64,000 bases of DNA from an uncultured Spirochaetales bacterium (GCA_964440465.1 CAYTSI010000002.1:15559-79558); one strand, 5' to 3'. Positions 36,084-61,101 are shown, counted from the first letter of the stretch. The notes: generated by a model not told the origin, from the sequence alone. Made by a program: numbers and translations.

Positions 36084-36707
36084 TTAAAAATGATAGAGCG
36101 CGGAGAGTGAGACTTCCAGAAAATTCCCGTAACGGTTCTGCGGCACCAGGGCATCTTTCGTATACCACTGGGGTGAAAACCAGTACACAACGTTCAAGCC
36201 GGCGGCCCAGGTACCGTTGATGTTCCAGTACAGGGAAGCGCCGGGTTTCACAATAAGCCCGACGTACAGCGATTCCTCGAGTGTAACAAAATTGAGACCG
36301 GTGCCGAGATAGATTGGTATTTCAAAGGGGTAGGCATAGAAAAAATATCCAATTTTAAAGGTTATCGGTATGATCGCCAGGACCCTGCCGAGGGGGCTGA
36401 AGGAAAAAGAACCGGCAAGTTCCGCCCCTAAGGTGAGATGTTCGGTTACGAAGGCATTCCACTCCAGGGAGCCGACACCGCCTAAAGATAAATTCGTGGA
36501 AACAGCGGAACCGCCCCCGAAAAAGAAGAGGGGAATAAATAACCCCGCGTTTACGGCAAATATCTGGTCTCCTAAGGCGTAGGAAACTTCGGGAATTCCT
36601 TCCGTTTCCTCCTCCTCCTGAGCGAAAATTTCTCCGCTTATTGAAAACAACAACGCGAAAATAGATATGAAAAGTAAAATACGTTTATGTCGCACAAAAA
36701 ACCTCAC
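36084..36707 (-). CDS. putative small outer-membrane beta-barrel protein
   Basis: Signal peptide ending AQEEEE. Alternating amphipathic beta-strands with aromatic girdle. C-terminal ...LSALYHF (terminal Phe), typical of OMP barrels. 14 nt upstream of the lipoprotein gene. Confidence 0.5.
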   Translation of the reverse strand: MRFFVRHKRILLFISIFALLFSISGEIFAQEEEETEGIPEVSYALGDQIFAVNAGLFIPLFFFGGGSAVSTNLSLGGVGSLEWNAFVTEHLTLGAELAGSFSFSPLGRVLAIIPITFKIGYFFYAYPFEIPIYLGTGLNFVTLEESLYVGLIVKPGASLYWNINGTWAAGLNVVYWFSPQWYTKDALVPQNRYGNFLEVSLSALYHF

Positions 36708-36792
36708 TTCAGTTACATAAAGATACTATCACCGCCAAAACAAATTTTCAATAGAGTTGGCATTCTAATCATGTTTTGATAGTATTGGCGGT

Positions 36793-37479
36793 ATGATTAA
36801 TAGAGTTACCGCAATTCAGGATAAAATACGAATACAAAACTGTATTATCAGTGTGGCCGACAAGACAGGATGTGCTGAATTCGTTGTAGAATTACTGAAA
36901 ATTATACCGGACCTTTCCGTTTTTTCCACCGGCGGTACATTTTCCCTTATTGAAAAAGCCCTGCCCGCGGAAAAGAAAAACGCGCTTGTCAATATTTCAG
37001 ATTTTACCGGCCGGCCGGAAATGCAGGGAGGGCTCGTGAAGACCTTGGATTTTACAATTTATACCGGTATCCTGAGCGAGCCCGGAAATAACGAGCACCG
37101 GCGGTATATTCGGGAGATAGGCGGAAGGGCCTTCGATATGATCGTTGTCAACTTGTATCCCTTCCGTCAGGCGGCGGCGAAGGAAAACAGTACGGTGGAA
37201 GATGCCCGGTCCCACATCGATATCGGCGGCCCCTCTATGCTTCGGGCGGGAGCGAAGAACTTTCTCCGGGTCGCAAGTGTCTGTGATCCTTCGGATTACG
37301 GGAGTATTATTTCCGAAATGAAAGCAAACGATGGAAGGCTTTCCGTTGCCGCGCGGCTCGATCTGGCGAAAAAGGCTTTTGCCCATACGGAAGAGTACGA
37401 CAGGGGAATTCACAGCTATTTCGAAACCATAGACGCGGATAATCTGAAGGCCGCGTACACCATTGCCGACGGGACGTAA
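36793..37479 (+). CDS. purH: PurH N-terminal module: IMP cyclohydrolase (MGS-like domain), ends at in-frame TAA
   Basis: ISVADKTG, LYPF and IDIGGPSMLRAGAKN motifs of the IMPCH domain. Stop TAA at 37477-37479 in the same frame as the next ORF. Confidence 0.75.
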   Translation: MINRVTAIQDKIRIQNCIISVADKTGCAEFVVELLKIIPDLSVFSTGGTFSLIEKALPAEKKNALVNISDFTGRPEMQGGLVKTLDFTIYTGILSEPGNNEHRRYIREIGGRAFDMIVVNLYPFRQAAAKENSTVEDARSHIDIGGPSMLRAGAKNFLRVASVCDPSDYGSIISEMKANDGRLSVAARLDLAKKAFAHTEEYDRGIHSYFETIDADNLKAAYTIADGT

Positions 37480-37482
37480 CAA

Positions 37483-38733
37483 ATGAAGAGCAAAACAATT
37501 TCTCAAATGTACAAAACGATGGAAGACGACAGTTTCCCCGAGGAAATGAGTATTTCTTTCACCGGCAGCGGCAGGACTTCAACCTTGAAGTATGAAAAAG
37601 TTACCTGGAACATCGAAGGAGTTACAAAGGGACTGCGCTACGGGGAAAATCCCGGACAGCCCGCGGCTTTGTACCGCCTCGTAAACGGAAATATCTCTAT
37701 CGCGGAATGCGAAATGATACTTCCGGGTGAACACCTGGCGTCGACTATCGATCTCCTGCAGTCGGGAAAACACCCCGGGAAAACGAATATTACCGATGTG
37801 GACAATGCCCTGAATATTCTTCGGTATTTCGGAGACACACCCTGTTCCGTAATTGTAAAACACAACAACCCCTGCGGTGCCGCGAAAGGGCCCGCGATAG
37901 GCGACGCGTATGAAAAGGCCCTGTACGCCGACAGAATTGCCGCTTTCGGCGGCGCCGTCGCGTGCAACAGAAGTATCGACACGGAAACCGCCCGGTTCAT
38001 GACGAAGAGCTATATTGAAGTTGTGGCCGCCCCTGATTTTGACCCCGGCGTTCTCGATATTTTTGCTAAGAAAAAAAACCTTCGGGTCATGAAAATCGGC
38101 GCGATCGAACGGCTCGCCTCGTTTATCGGAAAGCAGTGCATCGATTTTACCACCCTCATCGACGGCGGTGTAATTTGTCAAAGTTCCTTTGCGCCGCGGA
38201 CCCTGTCGGCGGAAGACCTCATCCCCGCGTCGGCGGAGAAAGAGGGGCGGGAGATCACCGTTGACCGCCGGCCTACCGCGGAGGAACTTGATGATATGAT
38301 TTTCGGCTGGCTCGTGGAAACAGGAATAACCAGCAACTCGGTCATTTATATCAAGGACGGCGTAACCGTCGGCATCGGGACCGGGGAGCAGGACCGGGTC
38401 GGCGTCGCGGAAATCGCGCGGGACAAGGCCTATAAAAAGACCGCCGAGAGGATCAGCTGGCTTCGGTATCAATCGGCTTATGCCGATTTGGATGAAGCAC
38501 GGAAAACAGAGGTCCTGGAAGAGGCGGCAGGCGGTCACGGCGGCCTGGATGCGTCCGTTATGGTTTCCGATGCCTTTTTTCCGTTTCGGGACGGAATTGA
38601 AGTCGGTCTTCGGGAAGGCGTTTCGGCAGTTGTTCAGCCGGGAGGCGCGATCCGCGACGGAGACTGTATCGAAGCGTGCAATGAATACGGAGCGGCGATG
38701 ATGTTTACGGGACAGCGCTGCTTTAAACACTAA
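37483..38733 (+). CDS. purH: PurH C-terminal module: AICAR formyltransferase domain
   Basis: LRYGENPGQ, VKHNNPCGAA, SDAFFPFRDG motifs. In frame with 36793..37479 (690 nt apart). Confidence 0.8.
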   Translation: MKSKTISQMYKTMEDDSFPEEMSISFTGSGRTSTLKYEKVTWNIEGVTKGLRYGENPGQPAALYRLVNGNISIAECEMILPGEHLASTIDLLQSGKHPGKTNITDVDNALNILRYFGDTPCSVIVKHNNPCGAAKGPAIGDAYEKALYADRIAAFGGAVACNRSIDTETARFMTKSYIEVVAAPDFDPGVLDIFAKKKNLRVMKIGAIERLASFIGKQCIDFTTLIDGGVICQSSFAPRTLSAEDLIPASAEKEGREITVDRRPTAEELDDMIFGWLVETGITSNSVIYIKDGVTVGIGTGEQDRVGVAEIARDKAYKKTAERISWLRYQSAYADLDEARKTEVLEEAAGGHGGLDASVMVSDAFFPFRDGIEVGLREGVSAVVQPGGAIRDGDCIEACNEYGAAMMFTGQRCFKH

Positions 38734-40043
38734 TGGCAACATTTTATATCGAAACATACGGCTGTCAGATGAATAAGGCGGAATCCAGCTACATAGCACT
38801 CCATCTTGTCCAGCACGGAATGGAGGAAACCGATGATCCTGAACAAGCGGACAATGTAATTATTCATACCTGTTCGGTGCGGCAGACAGCGGAAAACAGA
38901 ATCTGGGGACGGCTGGGCCGGTATACCGCTTTAAAGAAGAAACGGGACTTCAATCTTATTGTTGCCGGCTGCATGGCGGACAGACTGGGCGGGGAAATAC
39001 AAAAAAAATCGCCGGAAGTCGATTATGTACTCGGAAACGCGGAAAAAATGGATATTTTCAGCGTACTTGCCCGGGAGGAGGAGAGACGGCCGCGGACAAA
39101 GCCGGCGAACGGGAAGCGGGACTACCGTTTTCCCCTTACCTACGGATATTCCGGGGCGTTTCAGGCCTATGTGCCGATTCTCCACGGCTGCGACAATTTT
39201 TGTACCTACTGCATTGTTCCCCGCGTCAGGGGGCGGGAACTGTCCCGTTCCGGGGAAAAAATACTGTATGAATGCAAAGTGCTTGAAGAGGCAGGGGTAC
39301 GGGAAATTACCTTTCTCGGGCAGAATGTCAATTCATACCGGGGAACATATAAAAACGGCACCCTCGACTTCCCCGCGCTCCTTCGGCTTATCCTTAGGGA
39401 GAGCCGCCGTGTCCCGTGGTTCCGCTTCCTCACATCCCATCCGAAAGATTTTTCCAACGGGTTAATTGAATGCATAGCGGAAAATCCGAGGTTGTGCAGG
39501 GAAATCCACCTGCCGGTGCAGCACGGCTCCGACACCGTTTTAGCGGCAATGAATCGGCGGTATACCCGGGAGACATATCTTGCCCTCGCGGGGAAAATAA
39601 AGCAGGCAATCCCCGATGCCTCCCTTACAACGGACATTCTTATCGGATTCCCCGGGGAGACGGAGCGGGATTTCCTAGATACCGTCGACCTCCTGAAAGC
39701 GGTACAGTTCGATGACGCTTACACCTACAAGTACAATATCCGGGAGGGAACGCCGGCGGCGGGGCTCCCGGACCAGGTGCCGGAAGATGTAAAACAAAAT
39801 AGATTGGAAGAAATTATTGCAATTCAGCGTGATATCAGTAACAATAGGAGAAAGTGCCGGGTAGGGGACGTAACGGATGTGCTTGTAAAACAATTTTCGA
39901 AACGGAACAGCGCGGAACTGCTCGGTGTGGCCGAATTCGGCGCGTCGGTTGTTTTTTCCGGCACATTACATGATATCGGGGCCATCGTTCCCGTGAGGCT
40001 TACCTCCGCGGCGGGCTCCACATTGAAAGGAGAGAAAATATAA
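38733..40043 (+). CDS. miaB: MiaB-family tRNA methylthiotransferase (radical SAM + TRAM)
   Basis: N-terminal YIETYGCQMN (UPF0004/MTTase), radical-SAM CDNFCTYCIVP, C-terminal TRAM-like domain. Confidence 0.8.
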   Translation: MATFYIETYGCQMNKAESSYIALHLVQHGMEETDDPEQADNVIIHTCSVRQTAENRIWGRLGRYTALKKKRDFNLIVAGCMADRLGGEIQKKSPEVDYVLGNAEKMDIFSVLAREEERRPRTKPANGKRDYRFPLTYGYSGAFQAYVPILHGCDNFCTYCIVPRVRGRELSRSGEKILYECKVLEEAGVREITFLGQNVNSYRGTYKNGTLDFPALLRLILRESRRVPWFRFLTSHPKDFSNGLIECIAENPRLCREIHLPVQHGSDTVLAAMNRRYTRETYLALAGKIKQAIPDASLTTDILIGFPGETERDFLDTVDLLKAVQFDDAYTYKYNIREGTPAAGLPDQVPEDVKQNRLEEIIAIQRDISNNRRKCRVGDVTDVLVKQFSKRNSAELLGVAEFGASVVFSGTLHDIGAIVPVRLTSAAGSTLKGEKI

Positions 40044-40345: not shown

Positions 40346-41369
40346 ATTAGGCATTTTCCTTTTTTTCCTTCTGCCCTCTTTCTGTTCAGCCGACATTCTC
40401 GAAGCGGCTGTAGAAGAGCAGCGCGCGGGTAACCATTCCCGGGCCGCCGAGCATTTCGAAAACTGGCTTCCGGAACATGCCGACAGTGAAGAACTTCCCG
40501 AGGTCCTTGCTCTCTATTTCGAATCGGTCCGGGACCCGCGGAAGGCGCAACAGGTCCTGCGGGAAGTCCAGGCGGGATGCACGAACAGGGAAAACAGTGC
40601 AATACTTCTTTTTCACCTTGCCTTTTTGCAGGAAATGACGGGAAACATCTCCGATGCTCAACAGATGTTTGAATTTTCCAATACGCGGTCGACAAAAGCA
40701 GCGGATATTTCTAATTTTTTTCATTCCATCAGACTTCTCATATCAATGGGGGAGTTCGGCAGGGCGGAAGCGCAGACGAAGGCAATTATTACCACCGCCG
40801 GAGACAGTATGCTCAGCAGCCGGGGAAAGCTTTTTCTGTCCTATATTACATATCTAACGGGTAAGTTGAAGGAAGGGGAACGCCTTCTTTCAGAGACACA
40901 CGCCTATATTGAAAAAATGTCGGCGGCTGACGTGTATCTTTTTTATACCCTTTCCGAAATGTACGGCCGGGCACAATTCTCCGATACAGCGAGGGAACTG
41001 CTGTCGTCAAAATACGGCGGCAGCATCGAGTCTGCCGCGGCGGAAGAGGGGAGTACCGTCGTTATCGGACCGTCACTCCATCATTTCCAAGTATCGTCCG
41101 TTCAGCGGGAAGAAGAAAAAGAAAATCGGGTCATGCAAGACAGCGGTACGGTGCGTATTCAAACCGGAATATTCGCAAAACGGGATAACGCGGAAACACT
41201 GGTAGTTGCGCTCGGGCAAAACGGTTTTTCCGCGGAGACGGTGCGGGTTGACCGGGAAGGCCCGCCGTTGTACAAGGTCGTTTCTCCACCACTGCCGGCA
41301 GAGAGTTCCCAGGAATATATTCTTCAGCTGAAAGAAAAGGGGTTTGAAGGGTTTCTACTCTTCCCCTGA
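40332..41369 (+). CDS. SPOR-domain protein with signal peptide and helical region
   Basis: Signal KLGIFLFFLLPSFCSA. C-terminal SPOR-like fold (VRIQTGIFAKRDNAETLVVALGQNGFSAETV...YKVVSPPL). Confidence 0.55.
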   Translation: MKPSKLGIFLFFLLPSFCSADILEAAVEEQRAGNHSRAAEHFENWLPEHADSEELPEVLALYFESVRDPRKAQQVLREVQAGCTNRENSAILLFHLAFLQEMTGNISDAQQMFEFSNTRSTKAADISNFFHSIRLLISMGEFGRAEAQTKAIITTAGDSMLSSRGKLFLSYITYLTGKLKEGERLLSETHAYIEKMSAADVYLFYTLSEMYGRAQFSDTARELLSSKYGGSIESAAAEEGSTVVIGPSLHHFQVSSVQREEEKENRVMQDSGTVRIQTGIFAKRDNAETLVVALGQNGFSAETVRVDREGPPLYKVVSPPLPAESSQEYILQLKEKGFEGFLLFP

Positions 41370-42917
41370 TACCTCATTCACTTCTTCCGTTTCGTTCCGT
41401 TCATACCGCACATACAGCCGGGAAGTTTCCCCGAAGGGTTGAAAGCCGGACACACCAATTTTGCCGGGAGTAAGCGTTAGTTTGTAAATAGTTATTTGTT
41501 CGGTGAAGTCGACGGTCTGTTCGAGAAGATACCGTTTCGATTCGGCAACCGTATTCGATTCACTTAGGACCTTGATATTAAGGATCGTGTCGCCTTCGAT
41601 ATCATACATCGAATATTTCCCGCGGAGGGGAGTGCCGCCGGTTCTCATTTCAATGAAGGGACGCGCGAAGAGTATGCTGTCTCCGAATGAATTTTTGTAC
41701 TCCCCGCGTACTTCTTCGGGAGAGAGCACCACGCCGGTGTGAGAATACATTGCGTCCGTTACAACGCCCGCCTGGGCGGGACCGTGCAGACGGGTAAACG
41801 TACCGTCCCACATAAAATTACTTTTCGTGAAATCCCTGTCATTTATCTCGATTTTTATTACATCCATGCTTTCGACGTAAATGGAAACGTACTTCTTTAT
41901 AAACGGCACCATTTTATTGGTAACGGATATATAAATACTGTTGGGAATTCTCGTCCGGTGGGAGCTTTCCCATTCATACAGCTCCTGAATGTCTTGGGAA
42001 AAAAAGACAATTTGTCCCTCATCCGGGTTGAAAAATATGGTGGTCTGCTGATTATCGTCTTCCGGGCCGGACGTAATCCACGGTCCTGCCAAAAAATCCT
42101 CAAAGGCTTTCGTGTCCTTTGTAAAAAGTTCACGGAGCTGGGCTGCTTCGATTATTTTCCCGGGAATATACTCCACCTTTCCTTTAACGTACCTGTTTTC
42201 CTGATATTTCCAGTAATATTCTTCACGGACCAAGTCCATGATATTTTCCGTGTCCCTGTCTTGGGAGAAGGTGATAATCGGAAAGCTGCGGCCGTTCCGC
42301 TGGCCTTGTTTGTACGCCTGGCTCCGTTCATACTCATGAATATCGATGCTTCCGTCGGCCGTAATGGAGCATATGGAGGTGTAATACAGACCGACCCCGG
42401 ACGGGGAAAAGGTCTGCCGGTAGATGTCGAGACTCCTCAACCCTTGCTTATCGATTCCGGAACAGAGGATTTCCAGTTTGTGATCGCCGATAATATCGAT
42501 AAAACTGATAATAAAGTTGCGGACATTTGTCGCGTTGGTAACAGCTTCCCAGGAAAGAACATACTCGTTTGAAATCTCGTCGAAATCAATCAGCTTCAGT
42601 ATTATTTCTCCGTCCGGATTGTTTCTCATTTTTCCAAATATAATTTGCTCGTCCGTTTGGTCAAGATCGAGGTTTTGATTGATTATTTTTGCCGGCAGAA
42701 ATTGTTCGTCAAGGTCGATAAGCGGTCCTACGTCGAGGCCGCCGCTATCGGTAGAAAAAGTGCCGCTTTGCTGTTCCCCGGCATTCCTGTTCCGTTCCGC
42801 CGCAGTTATTTCCCTGGGGACCGGCGGGGGAGAAGAATCGGAGGTGGGCCCCGAAGGTCCGCAGGAAAGGAGCAGGACCGGGAGGAGAATGGCGGGTACC
42901 GTAATTAATTGTCTCAC
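41355..42917 (-). CDS. hypothetical lipoprotein
   Basis: Lipobox LLLSCGPSG followed by a Pro/Ser-rich linker. 520 aa. Last gene of a four-gene minus-strand cluster. Confidence 0.5.
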   Translation of the reverse strand: MRQLITVPAILLPVLLLSCGPSGPTSDSSPPPVPREITAAERNRNAGEQQSGTFSTDSGGLDVGPLIDLDEQFLPAKIINQNLDLDQTDEQIIFGKMRNNPDGEIILKLIDFDEISNEYVLSWEAVTNATNVRNFIISFIDIIGDHKLEILCSGIDKQGLRSLDIYRQTFSPSGVGLYYTSICSITADGSIDIHEYERSQAYKQGQRNGRSFPIITFSQDRDTENIMDLVREEYYWKYQENRYVKGKVEYIPGKIIEAAQLRELFTKDTKAFEDFLAGPWITSGPEDDNQQTTIFFNPDEGQIVFFSQDIQELYEWESSHRTRIPNSIYISVTNKMVPFIKKYVSIYVESMDVIKIEINDRDFTKSNFMWDGTFTRLHGPAQAGVVTDAMYSHTGVVLSPEEVRGEYKNSFGDSILFARPFIEMRTGGTPLRGKYSMYDIEGDTILNIKVLSESNTVAESKRYLLEQTVDFTEQITIYKLTLTPGKIGVSGFQPFGETSRLYVRYERNETEEVNEVSGEE

Positions 42918-46556: not shown

Positions 46557-48611
46557 ATGGGAAGTGTAGATCTGCCTAAAAGCCCGATGGTATTTCATCC
46601 GGAAAAACGGAGCGCTGTAGGGTCTCGTAACTCCTTGGCACAAGAAAGCAGAGATCAGCAAAAAGAAGTCGACAGACTGTTAGAGGAAGAGGTCGACAAG
46701 GTCATAAATCATATAAATGCAAAACTGCCAAGAGAAGTGCTCGAGCGTCTGGATGTCATGGGCGGGTTGAAAGAAAAGTTGTACAACTATTTCAACCAGA
46801 ATTACCAAAACATGTTTAACCGTTACATCACTACTACAGAGGATGAAATGGTTAAAAAAGTCAGGAACTATATCGACAAGGAGGAAATGAAAGTCCTCAC
46901 GCGGTATACTCCGAAGGAGATCGCCGAGCTTCTCGATCAGGTCGGCGGCATGGACAAGTTTAATACCGGTGAAATTGAAAAATCCGTGGTGAATATGTAC
47001 GGTCACCTTCAGGGTCACATCCAGCGCGGGCTGAACGACCTTGAAAACCATACAAACTCCCTTCTCCGGCAAAAAACCGATGTCGGTGCTTTCATACGGG
47101 GTGAAAATGCCTATTCCATCGTCAAGTGTTCCTTTAAGGACAACATCAGGAGACCGAAAACCGTAACCGACGTCAAACTGTCGGTCAATATCCTCGATTC
47201 CGAACTCATCAGTCCTATTTTTCACTATCAGGTAACCGTTGAATATCTGGTAAAAGACCTGATTTCGAAAAACATCATGGACACCATCGATAAGGAAATC
47301 GAAAAATACAAAGACGAACTTATCGATGAAGGAAAGGAAGAACCGAACGACAGCGAAATTATCTTCGAAAAGATGAACAGGGTAACGGATCACACCGACG
47401 ATGATCAGGACAATCCCAAATCGAAACGATATAAATACCTCGCGAAAGATTTGATGGACAGGATCGAAGGATTACGGGCTGAAATTGATCCCGAAGAATT
47501 TGACGCGGCCAACATCAGAGAAAACATAAAAGAGATAATCGACATCGAAAATATTCGTAATAGGGGATACAACACTGCGATCAATTCTATTACCAGTATC
47601 CTCGACACGTCCAAAATGGGATATCAATTTGTCGAGAATATGAAAAACACCCGGGAATTGATTCTGCGGGAATACGAAGACACCGATCCGGAACACCTTC
47701 CGGACGAGCGGTACCAACTTACGCTGAAGTATTACGACAACGCTCAGCTGAACGAAGAACGGAAAGCCTACGATGTCATGATCCAGTCCTTTCAGGTAGA
47801 AACAAGCCATCTCTGGGATGTTCTTGAAATGGTGTATGTCGACTCAAAATTTATGAAAGGAGTTGTCGATTTCGACGATTTGGCACGGAAATACAAAAAC
47901 AAGATTAAAAAGAAAATCAAAATGAAAACCGGCGATCCTCTATATGAAGATATCGAGAAGAGCTGGGATGAAATTTCGTTCGTGAAACCCGCTGAAACAA
48001 AAGTCGAACAGCTGAACCGGACTTTTCAGTTTGAAAAGGACAAGGAAAAGCGAAAAATGATCCTCATGAAAGACAAACTGCAGGAGATGTACGGTTTCCG
48101 GTACCCGATCCAGCGGAGAGTTATGGAAGACCGCTTGTCCTTCCTCGAACGGGAGTTCAACAAATTCGATTATATCATCAATCCGTATCACATCCAGCCG
48201 GGGCTCTTGTTAGACGTGGACATTACGTCGATTAAGCGGAAAAAGGCGACCCTCGACGGCATGGCAAACGTGTTGAATGAATTTCTCCATGGAGTATCGA
48301 AGGGTTTCCAGGACGCCGCTTTCGCGTCATTCTCCAGAAGAAGGTCCACCATCCGTGACGACATTGAAATGAGTTTCTCCACGGACATGGAGGGAGAAGC
48401 ACAGGCGCCCGGTCAGAGCTACCTCGATATGCTGAATGCTCCCGCGGAAAGTGAATCCGTTGAACCTTCAGAGATGGTCGAAGAATCAGTACCATCCCCG
48501 CCGAAACGAAAAAGCAGCACAAAGAAAAAAGGTGTAGTAGACTCCGGATCCAAATCGCGGAGAGGAAGAAAACCGAAAAAAAGTTCGGGTGACGAACTGA
48601 AAACTCTGTAA
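46557..48611 (+). CDS. highly charged coiled-coil protein, candidate cytoplasmic filament protein CfpA-like
   Basis: 684 aa (about 79 kDa), E/K/D-rich, long predicted helices, Lys-rich C-terminal tail. AGGAG RBS 8 nt before the ATG. Followed by a strong intrinsic terminator. Neighbouring ppdK echoes the T. pallidum cfpA neighbourhood (TP0746-TP0748). Assignment is from memory of size/composition/context only. Confidence 0.45.
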
Positions 48612-55051: not shown

Positions 55052-56533
55052 ATGCGGCAGCGAAACATCTTTTGTAATATATCCCCCCTCGACCATCGGT
55101 ATTTTTTAAGCAACGAAAAAGTCTTTACCGAATTAAGCCGCTACGTAAGCGAAGAAGCTTCCATACGGTACTGCCTGCGGGCGGAAGCGGCCCTTCTGAA
55201 GAGTCATGTCGACCTTTTTTTCGGCGGAGATGCCGAAAAAAAGGCCATAGCCGACGCGGCCGCGGACGCGGTAACTCCTGAGGAAGTGTACGCCGAGGAG
55301 GAGAAGACCCGGCACAACATCCGGGCTTTAGTGCATGTGTTTCAGCGGCGCCTTCCCGAGGAACTGCGGCCATATGTTCACTTAGGAGCGACTTCGGTTG
55401 ATATTTTAGACACCGCGGCCGCGGCGCGGATGAAGGAGGCGGTCCTGCGGGTCATTTTGCCTCTGTTAGAGGACGTCGAACTCCTGCTGTGCGGCCTTGC
55501 CAGGGACAATGCCGGCGTACCGCAGACCGGACGCACCCACGGACAGCACGCGGTCCCGATAACTGTCGGCTTCACCTTTGCCGAATACGTTGCCAGGCTG
55601 GGAAAATCGATACGGGAAATGGAAACCAGGGCACGGGACCTGCGGGGCAAGCTGGCAGGCGCCGTAGGGGCCTACAACGCTACAAGTCTCCTGGTAAAGG
55701 ACCCCGCCGCGCTGGAACGGCGGTACCTCGGCTATCTACACCTTCAGCCGCCGGAATATTCGAACCAGATGGTGGAACCGGAATACCAGCTCCGCCTGCT
55801 GACGGAAATCAATACCGCCTTCGGTATTCTTGCAAATCTAGCGGACGATCTTCGCCAGCTGCAGCGGTCGGAAATAGGGGAGGTGGTGGAATTTTTTTCG
55901 GCGGACCAGGTGGGTTCATCTACTATGCCCCAGAAGCGCAACCCCTGGAACAGTGAACATGTCAAAAGCCTCTGGAAAGCATTCGCGCCCCGGGTGCTTA
56001 CTTTTTATATGGACCAGATTTCGGAACATCAGCGTGATTTGACAAACTCGGCATCCTCCCGGTTTTCCGCCGATTTTCTCGCGGGATTCTGTGCCGCGGC
56101 GGAGCGGATGAAACGGATTTTAGGGGGGCTGCATGTGGATACGGAACGGTGCCTGCAGAATATCCGGATGGGAGGGGATTCCCTTCTCGCCGAGGCGATG
56201 TACATACTCCTCGCGGCTTCGGGACATCCCGACGGACATGAATACATTCGACGGAAAACGACGCGGGCCCGCGGGGAAGAAAAAAGTTTAGAAACACTGC
56301 TTCGGGAAGACGCCGGTGTGTGGGAAAGTATTACCGCGGAGCTGCGGAAGAATTACGGCATGGACGCCGGTGAACTGTTCAGCAGGCCCGAATTATACCG
56401 CGGGAAAGCGGAAGAGCGGGCCCTCGAGTTAGCGGACACTTACGGTGCTGAAATGAGGGCACTGAACGAACGGCTTACCGCGGAAGCGGAGGCAGAGGAA
56501 AACACGAGAAGGAAAACAGATGATGAAAATTGA
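55052..56533 (+). CDS. purB: adenylosuccinate lyase
   Basis: ISPLDHRY near the N-terminus and GSSTMPQKRNPWNSEH signature, E. coli-type PurB. Confidence 0.9.
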   Translation: MRQRNIFCNISPLDHRYFLSNEKVFTELSRYVSEEASIRYCLRAEAALLKSHVDLFFGGDAEKKAIADAAADAVTPEEVYAEEEKTRHNIRALVHVFQRRLPEELRPYVHLGATSVDILDTAAAARMKEAVLRVILPLLEDVELLLCGLARDNAGVPQTGRTHGQHAVPITVGFTFAEYVARLGKSIREMETRARDLRGKLAGAVGAYNATSLLVKDPAALERRYLGYLHLQPPEYSNQMVEPEYQLRLLTEINTAFGILANLADDLRQLQRSEIGEVVEFFSADQVGSSTMPQKRNPWNSEHVKSLWKAFAPRVLTFYMDQISEHQRDLTNSASSRFSADFLAGFCAAAERMKRILGGLHVDTERCLQNIRMGGDSLLAEAMYILLAASGHPDGHEYIRRKTTRARGEEKSLETLLREDAGVWESITAELRKNYGMDAGELFSRPELYRGKAEERALELADTYGAEMRALNERLTAEAEAEENTRRKTDDEN

Positions 56534-57959
56534 AGAATCCCTCAGTTATGACGATATTTTGCTCATACCCGCATATTCCGCGCTGCAGGCCGGGGACGCC
56601 GATGTGTCCGCGCGGCTTACGAAAACAATACGGCTGAATATTCCCGTTGTATCCGCGGCAATGGACACGGTAACTGAAGACGGTCTGGCAATAGCAATCG
56701 CGTTAGAAGGGGGGGGCGGAGTCATTCACCGGAATATGGAGCCGGAACAGCAGGCTGCTCAGGTGGGCAGAGTAAAGCGGTATTTGAACTGGGTAATAGA
56801 AAACCCCATTACCGTTGAAAAAAACCAAACAGTGGCCTTTGTGCGGCAGCTGATGGACCGCAACAAAGTGTCCGGCCTTCCGGTTATCGATGAAAAAAAC
56901 AAATTATGCGGAATTATCACCGGAAGGGACCTCAGGTTCTGCAGGGACGATTCCCTTATTGTAAAGGAGGTAATGACCTCCGAGCCCATCGTTGAATACG
57001 GAGAACCGAGTATTCAAAGCGCCCAGGAAAAATTTGACGACCATAAAATAGAAAAACTGCCCGTAATCGATAAAGAGGGAAATCTTACCGGACTCATTAC
57101 GGTAAAGGACATGGAAAAGCATCAAAAATTTCCAAAAGCGGCGGTTGACGGACGGGGCAGGCTTATTGTCGGCGCCGCGGTGTCGCCGGTCGATTATTCC
57201 ATCCGGATGCCTCTGCTGCTGAACAGCAAGGTCGATTTTGTCGTTATCGATACGGCCCACGGAGATTCGGAAAGCGTTATCGCAGCCGTCGGTGCAATTA
57301 AAAAGGAGTACAGTGTACAGGTAATCGGCGGGAACGTGGCAACGGCGGAAGGCGCGAAACGGCTTATCGATGCCGGAGCGGACGCGGTGAAGGTCGGCGT
57401 CGGCCCCGGTTCCATCTGCACAACCAGAATCGTCGCGGGAATCGGCGTCCCCCAGTTCAGCGCCGTTGTTGCCTGTGCCGAGGAGGCGTCGAAGCAGGGT
57501 GTTCCGGTAATTGCCGACGGAGGGATTAAATTTTCCGGGGACATCGTAAAAGCAGTCGCGGGCGGCGCGGATACGGTAATGATCGGAAACCTGTTAGCGG
57601 GGCTGAAAGAGGCGCCGGGAAGAGAAATTATCTTCGACGGACGGATGTTCAAGACCTACCGCGGCATGGGGTCGGTAGGAGCCATTAAGGACGGCGGCGG
57701 CGACAGGTATCAGATGAAGGACAATTCGGACCCGGTCCCCGAGGGGATAGAAGGAAGGGTGCCCTACAAGGGAGAGTTGAAACCCTATCTGCATCAGCTT
57801 GTAACGGGCCTGCAAAAAGGAATGGCCTACTGCGGCTGTGCCACCATTACGGAATTGCGGGAATATAAAAAGTTTGTTAAGATCTCCCCCGCGTCGCTGC
57901 GGGAAAGCCATGCCCACGATGTCATTATTACCCACGACGCTCCGAACTATTCGAGATAA
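56520..57959 (+). CDS. guaB: IMP dehydrogenase
   Basis: YDDILLIP, CBS pair, catalytic GIGVPQ...GPGSICTTR, IADGGIKFSGD. Confidence 0.95.
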   Translation: MMKIEESLSYDDILLIPAYSALQAGDADVSARLTKTIRLNIPVVSAAMDTVTEDGLAIAIALEGGGGVIHRNMEPEQQAAQVGRVKRYLNWVIENPITVEKNQTVAFVRQLMDRNKVSGLPVIDEKNKLCGIITGRDLRFCRDDSLIVKEVMTSEPIVEYGEPSIQSAQEKFDDHKIEKLPVIDKEGNLTGLITVKDMEKHQKFPKAAVDGRGRLIVGAAVSPVDYSIRMPLLLNSKVDFVVIDTAHGDSESVIAAVGAIKKEYSVQVIGGNVATAEGAKRLIDAGADAVKVGVGPGSICTTRIVAGIGVPQFSAVVACAEEASKQGVPVIADGGIKFSGDIVKAVAGGADTVMIGNLLAGLKEAPGREIIFDGRMFKTYRGMGSVGAIKDGGGDRYQMKDNSDPVPEGIEGRVPYKGELKPYLHQLVTGLQKGMAYCGCATITELREYKKFVKISPASLRESHAHDVIITHDAPNYSR

Positions 57960-57972
57960 TAAGGAAGGACAG

Positions 57973-59202
57973 ATGAATATTGTTGTTGTAGGCGCCCAAT
58001 GGGGCGATGAGGGAAAAGGGAAAATTGTCGATTATCTCGCTTCCGAGTCGGACCTGGTCATCAGGTTTTCAGGCGGGGCAAACGCGGGACACACCATCGT
58101 TATCGGGGACGAGACCTACAAACTCCATCTAATTCCGTCGGGAATCGTCTACCCTGACCAGTCGGTCCTGCTCGGTTCCGGCATGGTCATTGATCCTGAA
58201 GCACTTTTCGAAGAACTGTCCATGCTCGAGGAAAAAGGGATTGACTGGAAGGGCAGGGTATTCATTTCCGACCGGGCCCACATGGTGCTTCCGGGGCATA
58301 AACGGCAGGACCTTGAAATGGACAGGCAGAGAAAGCAGCCGTTAGGTACTACCGGCAGGGGGATCGGTATTACGTACGCTTTAAAGGCCCATAGAATGGG
58401 ATTACGCTTCGCCGATGTGGAAAACAAAGAGGCCCGCGCTGAGTTGGACGAAAACGATAGGGCATTTATCGATTCCTACGCGGAAAAACTAACGCCGATG
58501 ATCGTGGATATTGCTTCGTATATGGCGGACAGTACCGGAAAACGGGTCCTTTTTGAAGGCGCGCAGGGAGTTCTCCTCGATATTGACTGCGGAACGTATC
58601 CTTATGTTTCCTCCGGCAGTTCAATCGCCGCCGGAGCGGCCGCGGGCTGCGGAATCGGGCCGCGGAATATCGACAAGGTATTAGGTGTATTCAAAGCGTA
58701 TCAAACCCGGGTGGGCAACGGCCCCTTTCCGACGGAATTCACCGAAGACCGCGACGGCGATCTGGAACACCGTGTCCGGGAATTAGGCCGGGAGTACGGG
58801 GTGACCACCGGAAGGCCGCGGCGCTGCGGCTACCTCGACCTGGTAGCTCTCCGCTATGCCTGCAGGGTCAGTTCCATCGACGATTTGGTGCTGACGCATA
58901 TCGATGTGTACGACGAAATGGACACAATTTCGGTCTGTACCGCCTATGAAATTGACGGCAGGAGGGTTGAAAATTTTCCCGCCTCCGCGGCCGACCTTGC
59001 AAAGGCGAGGCCGGTGCTGCGGGAATTCCCCGGATGGAAGCAGTCGGTCCGGCAGTGTAAAAGCTTTGAAGAATTTCCGGAAGAGACACAGGATTATATC
59101 CGGTTTATTGAAGAATTTACCCAAACGAGGGTTGGAATTGTTTCGGTTGGATACCGGAGAAGCGAAACGATTTTGAGAACGGCACCTTGGACACAATTGT
59201 AA
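57973..59202 (+). CDS. purA: adenylosuccinate synthetase
   Basis: MNIVVVGAQWGDEGKGKIVD P-loop and GGANAGHT. AAGGAAGG RBS. The track ORF from 57838 is an upstream extension. Confidence 0.95.
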   Translation: MNIVVVGAQWGDEGKGKIVDYLASESDLVIRFSGGANAGHTIVIGDETYKLHLIPSGIVYPDQSVLLGSGMVIDPEALFEELSMLEEKGIDWKGRVFISDRAHMVLPGHKRQDLEMDRQRKQPLGTTGRGIGITYALKAHRMGLRFADVENKEARAELDENDRAFIDSYAEKLTPMIVDIASYMADSTGKRVLFEGAQGVLLDIDCGTYPYVSSGSSIAAGAAAGCGIGPRNIDKVLGVFKAYQTRVGNGPFPTEFTEDRDGDLEHRVRELGREYGVTTGRPRRCGYLDLVALRYACRVSSIDDLVLTHIDVYDEMDTISVCTAYEIDGRRVENFPASAADLAKARPVLREFPGWKQSVRQCKSFEEFPEETQDYIRFIEEFTQTRVGIVSVGYRRSETILRTAPWTQL

Positions 59203-60734
59203 TAATTGATTTCGGAGGTCAGACAACCCAGCTGATCGCGCGGCGGATCCGCGAGGCGGGTGTTTTTACCGAAATACTCCCGTCGGATACATCCGCGCGC
59301 ACAATCGACACGGAAGAGGTGAGGGGAATTATTTTCTCCGGCTCTCCCTACTCAGTCTATGCGGATGATGCTCCCGGAATCGATACCGCTCTTCTCGAAT
59401 TGGGGGTTCCCGTACTTGGAATCTGTTACGGAATGCACCTGCTGGTACACCACTTTTCCGGCCGCGTCGTTAATCATCCGACACGGGAATTCGGAAAGAT
59501 GCGGGTGCATCTACGCGGGCAGAATCCGCTTTTTAACGGCATTCCAGAAGAGTTGAACAGCTGGATGAGCCACGGCGACAGTATCGCCGAACTTCCCGAC
59601 GGATTTACCGTTTTGGCGGAAACGGAAGATTATCCCGCGGCTGTGTATGCACCTGATCGGAACATCTACGGACTGCAGTTTCATCCCGAAGTCACCCACT
59701 GCGAGTACGGGACGGAGATTCTCAGCAATTTCGCGGTGGAAATCTGCGGCTGTTCTCAGGACTGGACAATGGAACACTATGTGGAGGATGAAACAAAACG
59801 GGTCCGAACGCGGGTGGGAGACGGCAAGGTCCTTCTGTTAATTTCCGGCGGCGTTGACTCGAGTGTTACCGCGGCCCTGCTGCTGCATGCCCTCGACCCG
59901 GACCAAGTGCACCTCTTGTACATCGACACCGGGCTGATGCGGAAAAATGAAACCGAAGAAGTTGCAAAGATCCTTTCCGATTCCGGTGCCCGGCATATTC
60001 ATATCGTGGATGCCGAAACGGAATTTCTCAACGGGCTGCAAGGGGAAACCGACCCGGAGAAAAAACGGGAGATAATCGGCGATCTTTTTATTACCCTGAT
60101 GGAGCGGGAAATACGGAAACTCCGGATCCCGGATGCAATTCTCGCGCAGGGCACCCTCTATACCGATATGATCGAGTCGGGCAAGGGAGTGGGGAACAAG
60201 GCAAAGGTCATCAAGTCCCATCACAATGTCCGCTCCCCCCTTATCGAAGAGAAACGGAACAGGGGCCTTGTCATCGAACCGCTTTCACTCCTCTACAAAG
60301 ACGAGGTGCGGAAGCTCGGCAGTTACCTGCGGCTGCCGGACAGAGTCGTTAACCGGCATCCCTTTCCGGGGCCGGGGCTCGGGGTGCGCATTCTCGGGGA
60401 AGTGACGAAGGAAAAGTGTGATATTCTCCGGGAGGCCGATGCCATTTACATCGAGGAGCTGAAAAAACGGGACCTGTACGTAAAAATATGGCAGGCCTTC
60501 GCGGTCCTTCTGCCGATCCGGACCGTCGGTGTTACCGGCGACGAGCGCCATTACGGATACGTAATAAGCCTGAGGGCCGTTGTCTCATTTGACGGCATGA
60601 CTGCCGACGTATATCCCTTCGACATGAAAGACATTCTCGAAATAGCGAACCGGATTACCAACACTGTCCGTGAAGCGGGAAGGGTTGTTTACGATATTTC
60701 CAGCAAACCGCCCGCTACAATCGAGTGGGAGTAG
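59187..60734 (+). CDS. guaA: GMP synthase (glutamine-hydrolysing)
   Basis: GATase LGICYGMHLL and SHGD. ATP-PPase SGGVDSSV. C-terminal dimerisation domain. TTG start assumed. Confidence 0.9.
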   Translation: MDTIVIIDFGGQTTQLIARRIREAGVFTEILPSDTSARTIDTEEVRGIIFSGSPYSVYADDAPGIDTALLELGVPVLGICYGMHLLVHHFSGRVVNHPTREFGKMRVHLRGQNPLFNGIPEELNSWMSHGDSIAELPDGFTVLAETEDYPAAVYAPDRNIYGLQFHPEVTHCEYGTEILSNFAVEICGCSQDWTMEHYVEDETKRVRTRVGDGKVLLLISGGVDSSVTAALLLHALDPDQVHLLYIDTGLMRKNETEEVAKILSDSGARHIHIVDAETEFLNGLQGETDPEKKREIIGDLFITLMEREIRKLRIPDAILAQGTLYTDMIESGKGVGNKAKVIKSHHNVRSPLIEEKRNRGLVIEPLSLLYKDEVRKLGSYLRLPDRVVNRHPFPGPGLGVRILGEVTKEKCDILREADAIYIEELKKRDLYVKIWQAFAVLLPIRTVGVTGDERHYGYVISLRAVVSFDGMTADVYPFDMKDILEIANRITNTVREAGRVVYDISSKPPATIEWE

Positions 60735-60744
60735 GCTTTTGAGA

Positions 60745-61101
60745 TGGAGATGCCGAGAGTCGAACTCGGGTCCTAAAGTGCGTACCGCAGGCTTCTACAG
60801 GCATAGTTTCCTCTTTATGTGTCGAAGCAGGGTTGGCTCGGAAACCCGCCGTCTGCTTCCAGTGGCCTGAGAAAATGTCCCTTTACAAGCTCAGGCTCGA
60901 ATAAAGGTAAGCCCTGGTTTCTGTCGGACTATCCGGTCCTCAGGGCTGTGTACCGGTAGTCCGAGACCGGCTGCTTACGCTGCCAGTGCAAAGTCTGCTT
61001 GAGTGTTATCTTCAGCAGTTAATTTTTCCGCTTTATAGGAGCTCGGCCCTCCACCCGCGACCTACGATCTCATTCACTCCAGTCGAAACCGTGTCATCCC
61101 C
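60745..61101 (-). ncRNA. ssrA: tmRNA (ssrA)
   Basis: Minus-strand 5'-GGGGAUGACACGGUUUCGACUGGAG... pairs with the 3' end ...GGACCCGAGUUCGACUCUCGGCAUCUCCA (T-arm GUUCGACUC, acceptor stem, discriminator A, CCA not encoded). Internal tag ORF GCU GAA GAU AAC ACU CAA GCA GAC UUU GCA CUG GCA GCG UAA encodes AEDNTQADFALAA (+ strand 60975-61016). smpB lies immediately upstream. Confidence 0.8.

Follow-up and report, generated by a model that had tools for sequence, protein, structure and literature searches.

The fused, bifunctional PurH has been described in older reviews as "almost uniformly" present in non-archaea (PMC6797443, PMC3261824), and its two halves are known to function apart. Truncated human and S. 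lugdunensis PurH halves are active separately, and the naturally unfused PurH2 of Archaeoglobus fulgidus, AF1811, is active in vitro and complements E. coli (PMC6797443); unfused PurH1 had not been characterised as of the same publication. A survey of 1403 genomes by Cruz et al. (Genome Biol Evol, 2019) named the stand-alone genes purV (AICARFT) and purJ (IMPCH) and, in the main text, reports the purV/purJ arrangement for 44 of 1266 bacterial OTUs, as the commonest one after purH, and as fixed in Desulfobacterales, Desulfovibrionales, Thermodesulfobacteria, Prevotellaceae and Fervidobacteriaceae (PMC6486802). Here we analyse a locus of this kind in a stretch of 64,000 nucleotides (the window) from an uncultured Spirochaetales bacterium. 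We consider it highly probable that the region holds a two-gene replacement for the bifunctional purH, that is, an old, conserved and naturally split pair. Stand-alone purJ and purV are already described in bacteria and their arrangement in the window is ordinary; what is added here is modest and comprises the lineage, a conserved extension of PurV, the statistics of the junction, an unlinked state in the PVC group and an annotation gap.

The features of the region are collected in Table 1. Both genes lie in the same reading frame, and a single codon, CAA at 37480-37482, separates the purJ stop from the purV ATG. The ORF coordinates and the translation across the junction (...TIADGT, stop, QMKSKTISQMYKTMEDD...) agree with those of the original prediction, and the break lies, as was also claimed there, at the IMPCH/AICARFT boundary, which can be seen from the Pfam and NCBIfam purH profile matches of both ORFs. 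Two minus-strand ORFs overlapping purJ and purV are regarded as shadow ORFs, given that conserved coding genes occupy the plus-strand frames opposite them.

Table 1. Coordinates in the window of the purJ/purV locus and of features around it.
Feature	Position	Strand	Description
promoter-like site	36757..36785	+	TTGGCA - 17 nt - TAGTAT, TG before -10; from a consensus scan, weak
purJ (ORF1)	36793-37479	+	putative stand-alone IMP cyclohydrolase, PurH2 / IMPCH half of PurH, 228 aa
weak SD-like GGGA	37471..37474	+	inside the final purJ codons, 8 nt before the purV ATG
purJ TAA stop	37477-37479	+	3 nt before the purV start
purV (ORF2)	37483-38733 (TAA 38731-38733)	+	putative stand-alone 10-formyl-THF-dependent AICAR formyltransferase, PurH1 / AICARFT half, 416 aa
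PurV N-terminal extension	37483..37623	+	residues 1-47; larger part of the "expanded linker"; unmatched by fused-PurH profiles
helical insertion in PurV	38431..38547	+	approximately residues 317-355; phmmer alignments to 3zzm and 4ehi break here
miaB-like gene	38733..40043	+	radical-SAM methylthiotransferase; UPF0004 + Radical_SAM + TRAM
ORF upstream of purJ	36084-36707	-	
ORF overlapping purJ/purV	36997-37506	-	taken to be a shadow ORF
ORF overlapping purJ/purV	37579-38799	-	taken to be a shadow ORF
ORF compared with the purB model	55052-56533		
guaB, purA, guaA	56520-60734		NCBIfam

With respect to gene identity, purJ is a separate gene with its own stop, and this stop is present in 59 of 59 loci at which the two genes are linked. 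Its product carries the MGS domain (PF02142) and positions 2-65 of PF01808 (Pfam), spans positions 3-204 of the NCBIfam purH profile, and matches the IMPCH domains of PurH/ATIC structures in the PDB with E values of 7e-35 to 2e-27. The motifs LVKTL, NLYPF, IDIGG and RAGAKN align with those PurH motifs that hold human K66, Y104, D125 and K137, the lists of catalytic and substrate residues for IMPCH and AICARFT being taken from PMC3261824. A homologue search of about 5.8 billion proteins returned 3273 matches, the best 120 of which are, without exception, stand-alone proteins of 222-265 aa, and identity to Desulfobacterales purJ amounts to 44-53%. The conserved catalytic residues, taken together with the published activity of PurH halves, suggest that PurJ is an IMP cyclohydrolase, converting FAICAR into IMP.

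The purV product in turn carries PF01808 positions 69-311, beginning at its residue 40 (Pfam), and from residue 48 onward spans positions 212-510 of the NCBIfam purH profile. Searching about 5.8 billion proteins yielded 8000 matches; the best 120 of these, from Spirochaetia, Chitinivibrionales, Kiritimatiellae and other sources, are all 404-430 aa long and 61-92% identical, with a query coverage of mostly 98-100% (minimum 96%). A fused protein is absent from the best 120 matches of PurJ and from those of PurV alike. Identity to Desulfobacterales purV is 57-63%. Residues R52, Y53, K126, H127, S284-N285-S286, F366-P367 and R412 do not vary among 50 family members and sit in LRYGxNP, KHxNP, SNS, FFPF and the C-terminal R, the AICAR-binding and catalytic motifs of PurH; the alignment with PurH structures covers R52/Y53 of LRYGENP (M. 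tuberculosis PurH) as well as the FFPF and C-terminal motifs. From shared motifs and the human ATIC sequence, we take the corresponding human residues to be R208, Y209, K267, H268 and R589, a mapping made by motif and not by direct alignment, in which the SNS motif has no derived human equivalent. An AlphaFold2 model of PurV (mean pLDDT 78.8) matches, outside the N-terminal extension, the AICARFT domains of PDB PurH/ATIC structures with E values down to 2e-21 (Foldseek). In the same model helices are predicted at 306-329 and 338-350, around the insertion of 39 residues that is not present in bacterial fused PurH structures. Eukaryotic ATIC presumably has a longer insertion at this site, going by the human sequence. 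PurV would thus be, on its conserved catalytic residues and the published activity of PurH halves, an AICAR formyltransferase converting AICAR into FAICAR. Neither PurJ nor PurV passes any of the NCBIfam models tested, and the family assignment therefore rests on domain-level homology. Among the matches, PurV goes under the name "IMP cyclohydrolase" in NCBI records and PurJ under "hypothetical protein", and a pipeline built around a single purH may annotate such a locus as a pseudogene or the purine pathway as incomplete.

The original prediction had placed an expanded linker between the two domains. The roughly 50 extra residues are real, and comprise the last ~10 residues of PurJ and the first 39-47 of PurV, which have no counterpart in fused-PurH profiles; what does not stand is their identity as a linker, as structure prediction and conservation make most of them a folded N-terminal extension characteristic of this PurV subfamily. 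Within the extension, Y10, F18, P19, S25, F26, T34, L35, E38, K39, W42 and I44 show little or no variation across phyla, and the first 47 codons show a pN of 0.035 and a pS of 0.556 in comparison with the closest relative, L083. AlphaFold2 predicts a helix at residues 4-11 and strands at 21-28, 31-39, 41-44 and 47-50 (pLDDT ~68-83), and this predicted helix with its small four-strand beta-sheet runs into the LRYGENP substrate motif. A phmmer search with the N-terminal 53 residues of PurV as query, run on 1.84 billion representatives, gave as top matches FG-GAP-like repeat proteins, which are spurious by sequence, the genuine matches all being short fragments aligned over their own residues 2-53, except for one with a miscalled start, aligned over residues 44-92. 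The extension was not found inside a fused protein among these 1.84 billion representatives, in a list from which full-length family members are oddly absent. A junction-spanning query of 109 aa likewise retrieved no fused form, and its 34 candidates are all fragments of one side of the junction. Since the extension occupies the site at which IMPCH is attached in fused PurH, capping of the IMPCH-facing surface or docking of PurJ are its obvious candidate roles, and by this analogy it may serve one or the other. A more specific proposal is that the extension and the ~10-residue C-terminal tail of PurJ together form a docking module, from which a non-covalent PurH-like complex with efficient hand-off of FAICAR might arise; we put this forward tentatively and think it rather unlikely. 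A single stop-codon mutation at the frequent in-frame junction of stop, 3 nt and ATG would produce a long-linker fused PurH and, if true, the purJ/purV family would offer a living example of how genes fuse and split.

We then turn to the relatives of the locus; all those examined, with identities between 92% and 57%, have the split form. L083 (PurV 92% identical) has TAA, 3 nt and ATG in frame, as in the window, whereas L084 (80%) has an ATGA overlap, L001 (78%) an overlap of 11 nt and L085 (73%) an overlap of 8 nt, all three out of frame; the uninterrupted purH for which the original prediction looked to close relatives occurs in none of these four. Another 80 loci, 57-63% identical, came from a scan of species-representative genomes. 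In 59 loci purV is immediately preceded by an IMPCH gene, at a spacing of -40 to +365 nt, and frame offsets of 0, 1 and 2 occur in 19, 22 and 18 of them, which is chance level. The commonest single junction is stop, 3 nt and ATG, found in 8 of the 59 loci and in the window besides; L083 has it, and so do seven loci of Desulfobacterota (Desulfobacterales-type). In the Desulfobacterales loci with this junction, the upstream gene carries AGGAG in its final codons, and such placement of the SD accounts for the spacing. The shared reading frame is thus a coincidence of a common tight-junction geometry, and to call purH "interrupted by an in-frame TAA", as had been done, is misleading. At 25 loci no IMPCH homologue was found: four of these end at a contig edge, and at the 21 with adequate flank none lies within ~3 kb on either side. 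The 21 loci belong mostly to the PVC group (Kiritimatiellae, Lentisphaerae/Victivallales, Verrucomicrobiota), with one from Latescibacterota and a few from unclassified MAGs. Stand-alone PurJ homologues are nevertheless known, from our search, in Kiritimatiellae/Kiritimatiellota and Lentisphaerae, and therefore the two genes can be fully unlinked, in agreement with the published opinion that fusion of the PurH domains is not needed. Taken together, the known purJ/purV lineages are extended to Treponema-like spirochaetes, Kiritimatiellae/Lentisphaerae, Chitinivibrionales and Latescibacterota. The proteins of spirochaetes, Desulfobacterota and the PVC group are 57-66% identical, a similarity that horizontal transfer might explain.

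Both genes are maintained by selection. Nei-Gojobori dN/dS values against the four relatives are 0.08-0.14 for purJ and 0.07-0.10 for purV, the purV comparisons with L084 and L085 giving no ratio as synonymous sites are saturated. Purifying selection acts on purJ, on purV and on the N-terminal extension of PurV; there is no relaxation of selection of the kind expected of a pseudogene, and an intact fused orthologue was not found in any relative examined. Four independent assemblies, each from another run or sample (ERR2407577, ERR2407578, ERR1878617 and JGI 3300012009), share the identical junction ...GGGACG TAA CAA ATG..., with 0-1 mismatches in the 1941 nt. A microbial-mat metagenome is the source of one of these identical contigs.

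As to expression, M1 is favoured as the start of purV because it overlaps the purJ stop in relatives and because its SD score is better than that of M9, the anti-SD duplex energies being -5.0 kcal/mol for M1 and -2.1 for M9, against -5.6 as the median of the window. Translation of purV therefore probably starts at M1, by translational coupling. M9 (ATG 37507), which underlies the 408-aa products of some gene callers, was considered and is less likely, M1 being the conserved methionine. The promoter-like site of Table 1 ends 8 nt before the purJ start codon; a scan of the region for promoters and terminators returned nothing above shuffle expectation, with a count of sites no higher than in shuffles. 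At the other end, the ATG of the miaB-like gene and the purV stop share 1 nt (TAATG), and a miaB-like gene is also found 3' of purV in L083, L084, L001, L085 and L086-L089, all treponeme-like relatives, from which we infer a tight purJ-purV-miaB operon. In our proposal purJ and purV would be transcribed together with the downstream miaB-like gene, and ribosomes would stop at the purJ TAA. Translation of purV would then begin at its own ATG 3 nt further on, probably by termination-reinitiation and/or by means of the weak SD in the 3' end of purJ. The resulting PurV and PurJ polypeptides would perform steps 9 (AICAR to FAICAR) and 10 (FAICAR to IMP) of purine synthesis, an assignment made because the catalytic residues are conserved and separated PurH halves have published activity. 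Among the other purine genes that the organism was claimed to keep, guaB, purA and guaA pass their curated NCBIfam cut-offs, but the match to purB does not, the ORF in question scoring 241.8 against a cut-off of 326.2; this purB-like gene, guaB, purA and guaA form a cluster. Also encoded in the window are the cytoplasmic filament protein CfpA and a protein with a pallilysin domain, and the gene content points to a Treponema-like spirochaete as host. The minus-strand ORF just upstream of purJ has no Pfam match in the window; by position it corresponds to a TP_0126-family gene (Pfam) in the contigs of relatives.

Several alternatives to a naturally split pair were weighed. One is that the TAA is functionally read through, so that a long-linker fused PurH is made alongside the two separate proteins. 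The in-frame junction being the commonest single one speaks for this. However, two thirds of the junctions either lie out of frame or leave a wide gap, and in the PVC group the genes are unlinked, so that a fused product cannot be a necessity. Of the bacterial stop codons, TAA terminates most efficiently. The nucleotide that follows it, moreover, differs between the two loci compared (TAAC in the window, TAAA in L083), and the strong AGGAG before the stop in Desulfobacterales explains the geometry by SD placement; we therefore regard functional readthrough as very improbable. Equally slim in our estimation is the chance that the pair has been recruited to another pathway and makes no IMP, after the manner of ForH in formycin biosynthesis. 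A stand-alone IMPCH homologue of different role does exist in the PDB (6nko, ForH; E 1.8e-18 to PurJ), and the neighbours of purJ and purV are not purine genes. Yet PurJ is far closer to genuine PurH IMPCH domains (E 1e-35 to 1e-30) than to ForH, both PurH domains have kept every catalytic and substrate-binding residue, and secondary-metabolite genes were not found nearby. In addition, an anticorrelation across genomes between purV/purJ and purH, reported in the main text of Cruz et al. (PMC6486802), indicates that the pair replaces purH. The two remaining explanations, both of which the original prediction had offered next to a natural split, are refuted by the data. A recent nonsense mutation in a fused purH, leaving a pseudogene in progress, would agree with two ORFs in one frame parted by TAA and one codon, but it is hardly credible given that the relatives examined are all split, three of the four closest out of frame, that neither half has a fused protein among its best 120 matches, that dN/dS is near 0.1 in both, and that the N-terminal Met and extension of PurV are conserved. 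A sequencing or assembly error, for which its a priori possibility alone can be cited, is next to impossible with the same junction in four independent assemblies and a stop there in more distant relatives too. A naturally split, two-gene purH, the first of the three possibilities named at the outset, is supported by split relatives, selection on both genes and stand-alone families for both products.

Set against known systems, the window pair shares with bifunctional PurH/ATIC (TIGR00355, NF002049; PDB 1g8m, 1p4r, 3zzm, 4ehi and 1zcz) the domains, their N-to-C order and the catalytic residues, and differs in consisting of two polypeptides, with ~50 extra residues at the boundary and the 39-residue helical insertion. 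The purH models TIGR00355 and NF002049 score PurJ at 189 and 184 bits and PurV at 277 and 232 bits, respectively, where the cut-offs are 402 and 528; the two domains do not stand on one polypeptide that passes a curated whole-protein cut-off. NF005492 (PRK07106; 390 aa) is, like PurV, a stand-alone AICARFT-only family and one recognised by NCBI, but the window PurV reaches only 125.9 bits against its cut-off of 415 and falls into a different stand-alone subfamily. The pairs of Cruz et al. are, as in the window, stand-alone AICARFT and IMPCH genes that replace purH (PMC6486802), and judged by sequence similarity the window pair belongs to the same homologous family as those of Desulfobacterales. 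Table 3 of that study, on taxa in which a purV/purJ pattern is fixed, does not include spirochaetes, and the PurV extension, the junction geometry and a purJ-purV-miaB operon were not found in its main-text passages and term matches (PMC6486802). Finally, AF1811 of Archaeoglobus fulgidus resembles PurJ in being a naturally unfused, MGS-like PurH2 (PMC6797443, PMC3261824); the Archaeoglobus PurH2, however, pairs with PurP and not with PurH1/PurV, whereas the window has both PurH-derived halves, side by side.

The purV stop codon and the start codon of the miaB-like radical-SAM methylthiotransferase gene overlap by 1 nt (TAATG), and the gene order purJ-purV-miaB is kept in treponeme-like relatives, which ties a tRNA methylthiotransferase to purine genes within one operon. 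A promoter-like site, recognized by consensus match only, ends just 8 nt 5′ of the purJ ATG, and the frequency of such matches is not above that in shuffles; were this site used, a leaderless or near-leaderless purJ mRNA would be implied. Assignment of the window to a Treponema-like spirochaete follows from CfpA, a protein with a pallilysin domain and the ORF divergent from purJ, for which a Pfam search gave no match, the TP_0126-family match occurring only in the relatives' contigs.

Features of the window, with positions and strand
Feature	Position	Strand	Detail
ORF divergent from purJ	36084-36707	minus	same position as relatives' gene with TP_0126-family match
Promoter-like site	36757-36785		TTGGCA, 17 nt spacer, TG-n-TAGTAT
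purJ (IMPCH)	36793-37479	plus	
purV (AICARFT)	37483-38733	plus	
PurV residues 5-28	37495-37566		N-terminal extension
TAATG overlap	38731-38735		
CfpA cytoplasmic filament protein	46557-48611		1195 bits
Protein with pallilysin beta-barrel domain	41355-42917		
purB-like gene, guaB, purA, guaA cluster	55052-60734		
tmRNA gene	60745-61101	minus	tag peptide AEDNTQADFALAA

Within the cluster of the purB-like gene, guaB, purA and guaA, the purB-like protein scores 241.8 against TIGR00928, below the cut-off of 326.2, and is thus a divergent member of the adenylosuccinate-lyase family. The true purA start probably lies downstream of the listed one (GTG 57838), since the HMM match in this ORF starts only at residue 46-49.

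Among the matches listed, the label 'IMP cyclohydrolase' stands in NCBI records on the AICARFT-only protein, and the true IMPCH protein is labelled 'hypothetical protein'. JGI gives both the full bifunctional name; the naming of PurJ and PurV in public records is inverted or incomplete. In an NCBIfam profile search neither protein passes any model.

The PurV extension TISQMYKTMEDDSFPEEMSISFTG repeatedly matches very large proteins (P0247-P0253), in which the matched element is an FG-GAP/VCBS-like repeat SKIYRNNGDNTFTEQTSISLTGV, with E down to 7e-17 when summed across 8-9 repeats. We take this to be a chance likeness between beta-strand-rich motifs. PurV itself shows 57-66% identity among Spirochaetia, Desulfobacterales, Kiritimatiellae, Lentisphaerae, Chitinivibrionales and Latescibacterota (scanned loci L003-L082), which seems high for phyla so far apart; the purJ/purV system may have spread among them by horizontal transfer.
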